Origin: Escherichia coli
GTDB taxonomy: Bacteria > Pseudomonadota > Gammaproteobacteria > Enterobacterales > Enterobacteriaceae
Strand: one strand, 5' to 3'
Assembly (NCBI RefSeq): GCF_036507355.1
Contig: NZ_AP027877.1
Length of the DNA stretch: 64,000 nucleotides
Part shown: one piece after another, positions 22,309 through 33,836 of the stretch
Layout: every line of letters begins with the position of its first letter
How positions within the stretch are numbered: the first letter of the stretch is position 1
The notes under the pieces: model-generated
Seen by the model: the letters and a program-made list of their open reading frames with translations, nothing else
The model's database searches: none
Told to the model about the DNA's origin: nothing
Translations under genes and position numbers: made by a program

Positions 22309-22464
22309 GACCTCTCCTTTCCACCGTTCAATTTCGAAACAATGTTTCTAGTTTAGCGATTCGCCAGCGCGTATCCCGTAGTCTGGCTCACAGAGTGACG
22401 AAAAACTGGGCAAAAACACGTGCTTATGCTTTGCTTAAAAAAACACCAACTGAGGAGTGCAACG

Positions 22465-23352
22465 ATGCCGCGTTTAACCGCCAAAGATTTCCCACAAGAG
22501 TTGTTGGATTACTACGACTATTACGCTCACGGGAAAATCTCGAAACGTGAGTTCCTCAACCTGGCGGCGAAGTATGCGGTGGGCGGGATGACGGCATTAG
22601 CGTTGTTTGATTTGCTCAAGCCAAATTATGCGCTGGCGACTCAGGTAGAGTTTACCGACCCGGAGATTGTTGCTGAGTACATCACGTATCCTTCGCCAAA
22701 TGGTCACGGCGAGGTACGGGGTTATCTGGTGAAACCCGCAAGGATGAGCGGCAAAACGCCAGCCGTGGTGGTGGTGCATGAGAATCGTGGACTGAATCCG
22801 TATATCGAAGATGTGGCACGGCGAGTGGCGAAGGCGGGGTATATCGCCCTGGCACCTGACGGCTTAAGTTCCGTTGGAGGTTATCCGGGAAATGATGATA
22901 AAGGTCGTGAGCTGCAACAGCAGGTTGATCCAACCAAACTGATGAATGATTTTTTTGCCGCAATTGAGTTTATGCAACGCTATCCGCAAGCGACAGGCAA
23001 AGTGGGTATTACCGGATTTTGCTATGGCGGTGGCGTATCGAACGCGGCGGCTGTCGCGTATCCGGAACTGGCCTGCGCGGTGCCGTTTTATGGTCGTCAG
23101 GCACCCACTGCCGATGTGGCGAAGATTGAAGCGCCTTTACTACTCCACTTCGCGGAACTGGACACCCGAATCAACGAGGGCTGGCCTGCTTACGAGGCGG
23201 CGTTGAAAGCCAATAATAAGGTTTATGAGGCGTATATCTATCCGGGGGTTAATCACGGATTCCATAATGATTCCACGCCCCGTTATGACAAATCTGCCGC
23301 CGATCTTGCCTGGCAAAGGACACTGAAATGGTTCGATAAATATCTCTCCTGA
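22465..23352 (+). CDS. yghX: Dienelactone-hydrolase-family protein YghX, apparently intact
   Basis: Uninterrupted ORF 22420-23352 (310 aa); likely start MPRLTAKDF at 22465; alpha/beta hydrolase with GFCYGG nucleophile-elbow-like motif. Confidence 0.8.
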   Translation: MPRLTAKDFPQELLDYYDYYAHGKISKREFLNLAAKYAVGGMTALALFDLLKPNYALATQVEFTDPEIVAEYITYPSPNGHGEVRGYLVKPARMSGKTPAVVVVHENRGLNPYIEDVARRVAKAGYIALAPDGLSSVGGYPGNDDKGRELQQQVDPTKLMNDFFAAIEFMQRYPQATGKVGITGFCYGGGVSNAAAVAYPELACAVPFYGRQAPTADVAKIEAPLLLHFAELDTRINEGWPAYEAALKANNKVYEAYIYPGVNHGFHNDSTPRYDKSAADLAWQRTLKWFDKYLS

Positions 23353-23470
23353 TAGGTTTATCTCTTACGGGATTACGTCTTAAACAAGCATGAAAAAATA
23401 GCGTGCGCAAAAGTCGTTCTTTGCCTAAAATATCGCTATATATGACAATATATAGTGAATGAGGTGAACG

Positions 23471-23758
23471 ATGAATAACCATTTTGGTAAAGGCTTAATG
23501 GCGGGATTAAAAGCAACGCATGCCGACAGTGCGGTTAATGTGACAAAATTCTGTGCCGATTATAAACGCGGTTTTGTATTAGGCTACTCACACCGGATGT
23601 ACGAAAAGACCGGAGATCGCCAGCTTAGCGCCTGGGAAGCGGGTATTCTGACGCGCCGCTATGGACTGGATAAAGAGATGGTAATGGATTTCTTTCGTGA
23701 GAATAATTCCTGTTCTACGTTGCGCTTTTTTATGGCCGGTTATCGCCTCGAAAATTGA
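23471..23758 (+). CDS. yghW: DUF2623 protein YghW
   Basis: 95-aa [30 protein letters not shown]...; recognised as YghW. Confidence 0.85.
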
Positions 23759-23946
23759 TCAAACATACGTATTATCTTGCTTTAATTAATTACACTAATG
23801 CTTCTTCCCTTCGTTTTAGCGCCCCGCCGCAGTATCATGATATCGATAACCATAATAAATGTGTGGTAAATGGCGCATCGATCGCATTATTGATTTTGCG
23901 ATTGAGGCAAAATATATGCCAGGTCTTCGCAACGGAATAACTATAA

Positions 23947-25065
23947 ATGACTGGAGATAACACCCTCATCCATTCTCACGGCATTAACCGTCGTGATTTC
24001 ATGAAGCTTTGTGCAGCATTAGCCGCCACCATGGGGTTAAGTAGCAAAGCCGCTGCAGAGATGGCCGAATCGGTTACTAACCCGCAGCGTCCGCCAGTTA
24101 TCTGGATTGGCGCTCAGGAGTGCACCGGTTGTACGGAATCTCTGCTTCGTGCAACGCATCCAACGGTAGAAAATCTCGTGCTGGAGACTATCTCTCTGGA
24201 ATATCACGAAGTGCTTTCCGCCGCCTTCGGTCATCAGGTCGAAGAGAACAAACATAACGCTCTCGAGAAGTACAAAGGGCAGTATGTGTTAGTGGTGGAT
24301 GGTTCCATCCCATTAAAAGATAACGGTATTTATTGCATGGTTGCCGGTGAGCCGATTGTGGATCACATCCGCAAAGCGGCGGAAGGCGCAGCAGCCATTA
24401 TCGCTATCGGTTCCTGCTCCGCGTGGGGCGGTGTTGCCGCAGCTGGAGTTAACCCAACTGGCGCAGTCAGCCTGCAAGAAGTTCTGCCAGGCAAAACCGT
24501 TATCAATATTCCGGGCTGCCCGCCGAACCCGCACAACTTCCTCGCGACCGTTGCGCACATCATCACTTACGGCAAACCGCCGAAACTGGATGACAAAAAC
24601 CGTCCGACCTTCGCCTATGGCCGTCTGATTCACGAACACTGCGAACGTCGCCCGCACTTCGATGCTGGTCGTTTTGCCAAAGAGTTCGGTGATGAAGGCC
24701 ACCGCGAAGGCTGGTGCCTGTACCACCTCGGCTGTAAAGGGCCAGAAACTTACGGCAACTGCTCAACGCTGCAATTCTGCGATGTTGGCGGTGTGTGGCC
24801 GGTGGCGATTGGTCACCCGTGCTATGGCTGTAACGAAGAAGGTATCGGCTTCCATAAAGGCATCCATCAGCTTGCCAACGTCGAAAATCAGACTCCGCGT
24901 TCACAGAAACCGGATGTTAACGCTAAAGAGGGCGGCAACGTCTCTGCAGGCGCTATTGGTTTGCTCGGCGGTGTGGTTGGGCTGGTTGCCGGTGTCAGCG
25001 TGATGGCGGTGCGTGAACTGGGTCGTCAGCAAAAGAAAGATAACGCTGACTCACGGGGAGAATAA
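23947..25065 (+). CDS. hybO: Hydrogenase 2 small subunit (Tat signal)
   Basis: 372-aa ORF with RRDFMK twin-arginine motif and Fe-S cysteine ligands; recognised as HybO. Confidence 0.95.
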
Positions 25066-33598: not shown

Positions 33599-33836
33599 AA
33601 TCAAAATATTCAATATTTATATATTCAAATATTTATTCATTTCATATGTGAATACATTAACCAGCAGAATGCCTGTGTTCTAATTATTTCTAAAGATTTT
33701 TAATGAATGCTTATTGTCTGATACACAAGAAATAACACTCTTTTTATCGTTAAAAAATGATATTTCACTTTGCCCACACCGTTAAAGTCACTGATAATGC
33801 GTCCGTTCGTAAATTCAAAATGGCGTAATCTAATAT

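Follow-up and report, generated by a model that had tools for sequence, protein, structure and literature searches.

An inverted repeat upstream of yghW in Escherichia coli lies at the center of a conserved 28-bp palindrome predicted to be a ModE operator

The site described here lies in a 64,000-nucleotide stretch of Escherichia coli DNA (RefSeq assembly GCF_036507355.1, contig NZ_AP027877.1; hereafter, the window), in which the local gene order is gpr on the minus strand followed by yghX, yghW, and hybO on the plus strand. The window is identical to an E. coli RefSeq record over the 501 bp tested, and that record annotates yghW as the coding sequence of a 95-aa DUF2623 protein, which is preceded by a Shine-Dalgarno-like GAGGTG four nucleotides before its ATG (Table 1). 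The upstream neighbor, yghX, is intact in the window (22420-23352; 310 aa by ORF call and 295 aa in the identical RefSeq record), and its product combines a dienelactone hydrolase domain with a YqhI-like N-terminus; in K-12, yghX is annotated as a pseudogene accompanied by a separate small gene, yqhI.

Between yghX and yghW, the window carries a perfect inverted repeat with 8-bp arms and a 4-bp spacer, CTATATAT-GACA-ATATATAG (full sequence CTATATATGACAATATATAG), at exactly the location given in the first-pass annotation of this DNA (23436-23455). The same annotation had placed the repeat about 15 bp upstream of yghW, and the measured distance from the end of the right arm to the ATG at 23471 is 15 nt. 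Taken by itself, the bare 8+4+8 repeat is statistically unremarkable because both of its arms are runs of TA and are thus self-complementary. Specifically, the window contains five perfect 8+4+8 repeats against about 1.5 expected from first-order Markov simulations, and when spacers of 0 to 10 are allowed, it contains 46 perfect repeats with 8-bp arms against about 14 in such simulations. No tandem repeats were found around the site.

Table 1. Features of the yghX-yghW intergenic region and the start of yghW, in window coordinates
Feature	Position	Strand	Basis or remark
Candidate sigma-70 promoter of yghW	23421..23449	+	-35 TTGCCT (23421-23426), 17-nt spacer, -10 GACAAT (23444-23449)
Complete predicted ModE box ATCGCTATATA-TGACAA-TATATAGTGAA, 11-6-11 palindrome	23432..23459	.	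Consensus match, PWM, and conservation
Left ModE half-site ATCGCTATATA	23432..23442	.	0 mismatches to consensus
Perfect 8-4-8 inverted repeat	23436..23455	.	Inner portion of the ModE box
Variable N6 center TGACAA	23443..23448	.	Differs among E. coli strains
Candidate antisense promoter	23447..23475	-	-35 TTCATC (23475-23470), 17-nt spacer, -10 TATATT (23452-23447)
Right ModE half-site TATATAGTGAA, weakened in the window strain	23449..23459	.	K-12 has TATATAGCGAA
Rare T allele (C in K-12), box position 25	23456	.	Near-invariant C of the half-site
Shine-Dalgarno-like GAGGTG of yghW	23461..23466	+	Sequence; 4 nt before the ATG
yghW coding sequence, 95 aa, DUF2623	23471..23758	+	Annotated in the identical RefSeq record

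The repeat proves to be the inner part of a larger palindrome with the properties of a ModE box. ModE forms homodimers and has a winged-helix domain for DNA binding, and modE is annotated in K-12, the gene itself lying outside the 64-kb window. The ModE consensus published for E. coli by Rodionov et al. (2004, PMC545781), ATCGNTATATA-[N6]-TATATANCGAT, is matched by 23432-23459 of the window at 20 of the 22 specified positions, that is, with 2/22 mismatches, while the box of K-12 MG1655, ATCGCTATATA-TGACAA-TATATAGCGAA, departs from it at 1/22. Because the best consensus match in 20 shuffled windows (1.28 Mb) had four mismatches and was met once, the larger unit lies beyond chance. The site therefore extends over 28 bp in an 11-6-11 arrangement, and the GACA that appears as the spacer of the smaller repeat is part of the variable N6 center and forms no conserved unit.

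This match was further examined against sites of other operons. A scan of four K-12 regions with the consensus returned unique best sites upstream of modA, moaA, dmsA, and napF, with four, four, three, and two mismatches, respectively. These four reference sites were placed by that scan, with the footprinting literature as background, and napF is a ModE-controlled operon; the ModE regulation of the dmsABC and moa operons is taken from the titles of the papers concerned. With a position weight matrix (PWM) built from these four sites only, 23432-23459 is the top match of the 64-kb window, scoring 23.4 bits where the runner-up reaches 11.7, and the K-12 allele of the box scores 27.5 bits. The maxima of 100 shuffled windows averaged 12.6 bits, with a highest value of 21.7, and the leave-one-out scores of the reference sites themselves ran from 18.3 to 25.7 bits, three of the four falling below the score of the window box. 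A second ModE-like match in the window, ATATTTATATATTCAAATATTTATTCAT at 33613-33640, has five mismatches and scores 11.7 bits, which is within the range of the shuffled windows; it sits in AT-rich pitB-gss intergenic DNA and was set aside as probably a chance match. Other regulators were also considered. The SOS box of LexA is a similar-looking TA-rich palindrome with CT...AG ends, but its consensus is the 16-bp CTGT-N8-ACAG, and the element reads CTA...TAG over 20 bp with neither CTG nor CAG. LexA, NrdR, and Zur boxes were all rejected on the grounds of half-site sequence and spacing, which disagree with those of the element.

The length of the arms noted in the window is a property of this strain. 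In K-12, the perfect arms measure 11 bp, TCGCTATATAT-GACA-ATATATAGCGA, and the 8-bp arm length is thus strain-specific because a T stands at 23456 here as opposed to the C of K-12, this single-nucleotide change being the sole difference between the two across 101 nt. The allele is rare: among matching E. coli genomes, a 60-mer taken from the window is found exactly in 7 of 5288 and the K-12 60-mer in 2433 of 5309. The T falls at position 25 of the box, where each of the four reference sites and 78 of the 79 distinct orthologous rows have C. With T in place of C, only 8 bp of the 11-bp perfect arms remain, and the PWM score is about 4 bits lower (23.4 as against 27.5); we infer that ModE would bind this box less strongly, so that regulation may be weaker in the window strain. 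As a natural operator variant, the T allele could be used for testing the importance of this half-site position.

Conservation across Enterobacteriaceae had been named in the first-pass annotation as one way to check the repeat, and it was assessed here by comparing the 70 nt before the start codon at 80 loci, each from a different species, that encode relatives of YghW and cover the family from Escherichia to Buttiauxella, Cedecea, and Shimwellia. The ModE box is present with zero to three mismatches at all 80 of these enterobacterial loci, as a palindrome set off from more variable flanks and most often reading ATCGCTATATA-ATTTAT-TATATAGCGAT. In the box-anchored alignment, the mean information is 1.83 bits at the specified positions and 1.13 bits at the N positions, falling to 0.74 and 0.46 bits in the 30-nt flanks. 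The outer CG dinucleotides (box positions 3-4 and 25-26) and the TATATA of the right half are near-invariant across genera, whereas position 24, an N in the consensus, is occupied by A in 33 cases, G in 42, and T in 4. The pattern within Escherichia is similar, with most substitutions in 11 aligned sequences falling in the N6 center and at position 24; the left half-site is identical in nine of the 11 and carries one substitution in each of the remaining two, and the N6 center reads TGACAA, TTACGA, TGGCGA, or TGAAAA, among others, in different E. coli strains. Judged from these alignments, the arms of the repeat extend outward to the CG dinucleotides, and GACA is not a unit.

The box also keeps its place relative to yghW. 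In the window, 11 nt separate its end from the start codon; the distance is 10-21 nt at 79 of the 80 loci, and when the enterobacterial loci are taken together with the six of seven more distant DUF2623 lineages that carry the box, it lies 10-29 nt before the start codon at all but one locus, where the distance is 73 nt. That one is Enterobacter sp. JUb54 (locus L059), which has a perfect ModE box 73 nt before the yghW start (upstream of 2501 in that locus); an insertion or a different start codon could account for the distance. The genes to the left of the box, on the other hand, change from genus to genus. The upstream neighbor is yghX in E. coli, Klebsiella, and Raoultella and gpr in Kluyvera and Yokenella, and the box is likewise retained next to a chemoreceptor gene in Citrobacter and next to unrelated genes in Buttiauxella and Cedecea. 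Downstream, hybO is found 3' of yghW in some genera only, with the box present either way. Directly left of the box (23418-23431 in the window; loci L002-L081), all genera show a moderately conserved motif, TTGCxT or TCGCTC with an A-tract after it, which carries about 1.0-1.5 bits per position and could be either a -35 element for a promoter of the E. coli type or an additional element resembling a half-site.

Promoter candidates were then sought over the box. The best plus-strand candidate at the locus by enumeration is TTGCCT-17-GACAAT, scoring 8/12, and Shimada 2014 predicted the same promoter from a genomic SELEX peak of RpoD holoenzyme in the yghX-yghW interval; a promoter scan at a threshold of 9 of 12 returned no plus-strand promoter over the repeat. 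A different arrangement emerges from the orthologous loci, where box positions 8-13 read TATAAT on the plus strand in 70 of 80 cases and the mirror hexamer on the minus strand is TATAAT in 15. Full promoters scoring at least 9/12 are present on the plus strand at 54 loci and on the minus strand at 7, an example being TAGCCA-18-TATAAT on the plus strand in Kluyvera. The plus-strand TATAAT in the left half-site thus suggests that the box incorporates the -10 element of a promoter pointing rightward, toward yghW, and the TATATG found at positions 8-13 in both E. coli K-12 and the window strain would be a degraded form of an ancestral TATAAT. Every candidate -10 found, whether GACAAT at 23444-23449 or TATAAT at positions 8-13 in the 70 loci, lies within the box, which under either candidate is therefore predicted to cover the -10 region together with the expected start site of yghW, the position of the latter being our own estimate. 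Published start-site maps gave no entry for it: no yghW start site was found at the coordinates searched in the Kim 2012 supplements, where b2998 appears only in an orthologue table, and the Ettwiller 2016 supplements held no match. The suggestion in the first-pass annotation that the repeat might be a regulator operator overlapping the promoter is thus borne out insofar as the repeat forms the inner part of a palindromic ModE box covering the candidate -10 hexamers.

Comparison with established ModE sites bears on how the box would act. The operator of E. coli modABC is an 11-6-11 palindrome of the same consensus as that at yghW, ending 17 nt before the modA ATG, compared with 11 nt at yghW, and its left half contains TATATT where most yghW orthologues have TATAAT. 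The yghW box is nearer the consensus (one or two mismatches) than the modA box (four), and it is often the better match of the two. The genes served are of different kinds, modABC encoding a transporter and yghW a 95-aa protein without an assigned function. The sites at moaA, dmsA, and napF have the consensus in common with the yghW box and score similarly, but they lie farther from their start codons, their ends being about 174, 72, and 197 nt away, respectively. At these three operons, ModE acts as an activator. Because its placement resembles that at modA, and because it lies on the predicted core promoter, unlike the upstream activation sites, the yghW box suggests repression, and ModE most likely represses rather than activates yghW.

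ModE senses molybdate and regulates modABC as well. In the mechanism that we propose, it would occupy 23432-23459 in its molybdate-bound form when molybdate is plentiful, blocking RNA polymerase and keeping yghW off. When molybdate is scarce, ModE would be released, and yghW would be transcribed alongside the modABC uptake genes. Expression data from Salmonella are in keeping with this picture. The molybdate iModulon of Salmonella Typhimurium comprises modA, modB, modC, STM0770, STM0771, STM3142, and yghW (PMC9764980), and modABC and yghW are jointly among the down-regulated genes in another Salmonella data set; membership of an iModulon is correlative evidence, here obtained in Salmonella. 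In the supplements to the iModulon study, yghW is not mentioned. Overall, the consensus match, the matrix score, and the conservation at yghW loci make it very probable that the inverted repeat is the center of a 28-bp ModE operator, predicted to overlie the yghW promoter and to repress yghW.

The more modest reading, also offered in the first-pass annotation, is that the element is simply an AT-rich -10 region, its palindromy being a by-product of two TA runs with no regulator bound. It draws on the self-complementary TA repeats of the arms and on the presence of five perfect 8+4+8 repeats in the window, where the type is not uncommon, and it is right in one respect, since the candidate -10 hexamers do sit inside the element. 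A hexamer, however, accounts for 6 bp and not for a unit of 28 bp, nor for outer CG dinucleotides and a right-half TATATA that stay near-invariant while the flanks drift, and the agreement with both the ModE consensus and a matrix derived from other operons is far beyond chance, so that we regard this reading as highly improbable. Still less probable is a role at the RNA level, either as a structure in the 5'-UTR of yghW or as a terminator or attenuator after yghX. The RNA of 23425-23475 does fold into an 11-pair hairpin (-11.8 kcal/mol, z-score -4.5), and the end of yghX, encoded on the same strand, is 80 nt upstream; such folding is nonetheless expected of any palindrome. The reported arms are A/T except for one terminal C-G pair, and an intrinsic terminator was rejected, there being no G+C-rich stem followed by a T run and no plus-strand terminator-like site in a scan of 23200-24000. 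A search of the same interval on both strands gave no Rfam match at E-values up to 1. Of 49 distinct boxes, 18 have non-pairs (C/A, C/T, or A/G) where positions 5 and 24 face each other in the stem, and the paired fraction of 31/49 equals the prediction for independence, which means that these variable positions do not covary. Moreover, if the -10 element lies inside the box, the yghW mRNA would be without the left arm.

A rival of a different kind concerns which gene the operator serves. A ModE site at this locus was reportedly found by genomic SELEX and assigned to an antisense gene. A study of ModE targets (Kurata 2013; J Bacteriol 195:4496, PMC3807462) is cited for the antisense gene pair yghW/morA and for the direct control of morA by ModE, and its title and the papers citing it assign the ModE-dependent promoter at the locus to morA, not explicitly to yghW. 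As far as that title and those citations go, the ModE box is a known kind of site that has essentially already been reported at the yghW locus; the morA target shares its locus and regulator with the box described here, the named target being a non-annotated antisense gene. On the minus strand, the candidate TTCATC-17-TATATT scores 8/12 by enumeration, equal to the plus-strand candidate, and may be the morA promoter, sharing the ModE box, a link that we draw from the same title and citing papers. A 77-aa minus-strand ORF (23249-23482), which crosses both the box and the 3' end of yghX, may in turn be related to morA. The pairing of yghW with a ModE-controlled antisense gene, the equal promoter scores, and the ORF spanning the box would all agree with an operator that serves only a leftward morA promoter inside the palindrome and leaves yghW outside ModE control. 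The comparison across genera speaks against this, as the mirror -10 TATAAT and the minus-strand promoters of at least 9/12 occur at far fewer of the 80 loci than their plus-strand counterparts (15 vs 70 and 7 vs 54), and the distance from the box to the yghW ATG is fixed while the sequence on the left changes completely between genera. In Salmonella, furthermore, it is yghW and not an antisense RNA that groups with modABC (PMC9764980). Exclusive service to morA consequently appears unlikely, although somewhat less so than either of the two preceding readings, and the comparative evidence points to yghW as the conserved target of the box. The morA reading is weak only as an exclusive one, since in E. 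coli a single operator could be common to the two promoters.

With yghW as the probable conserved target of a ModE operator, the family to which its product belongs merits attention. DUF2623 is very small, with 62 cluster representatives among 1.84 billion proteins. Seven more distant lineages, with 29-46% identity to YghW, were included in the comparison, and six of them have a ModE box just upstream with zero to three mismatches. In the seventh (protein P0163; loci L092-L094), a decayed box, CTCGGTATGCAATAATTTACACAACGTA, with seven mismatches occupies the usual position, about 19-47 nt before the DUF2623 start codon, which suggests that ModE control may have been lost or changed in this lineage. 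Two neighborhoods among the distant relatives were also recorded. At locus L097 (610-1794), the DUF2623 gene and its ModE box lie directly 3' of a gene for a ModA-family (SBP_bac_11) binding protein with 25% identity to E. coli ModA, and at locus L100 (763-1788), the DUF2623 gene lies directly 3' of a MOSC-domain gene; both neighbors are molybdenum-related. A PDB sequence search with YghW returned nothing, a first AlphaFold model was poor (pLDDT 63), and the literature search gave no papers that mention DUF2623.

The site itself represents ordinary biology, that is, a metal-sensing repressor over a promoter, and its interest lies in the gene that it would control. Because this small family is tightly coupled to a near-consensus ModE box on the promoter, and because the ModA-family and MOSC-domain neighbors in distant relatives are suggestive, there is about an even chance that YghW is an unrecognized core component of the enterobacterial response to molybdate starvation. 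The published assignment of the ModE site to an antisense gene may thus be incomplete, and in E. coli, one operator may gate two opposed promoters, those of yghW and morA. As a conserved target, yghW stands as an uncharacterized candidate for a role in molybdate homeostasis, and what YghW does when molybdate is scarce is a directly testable question.
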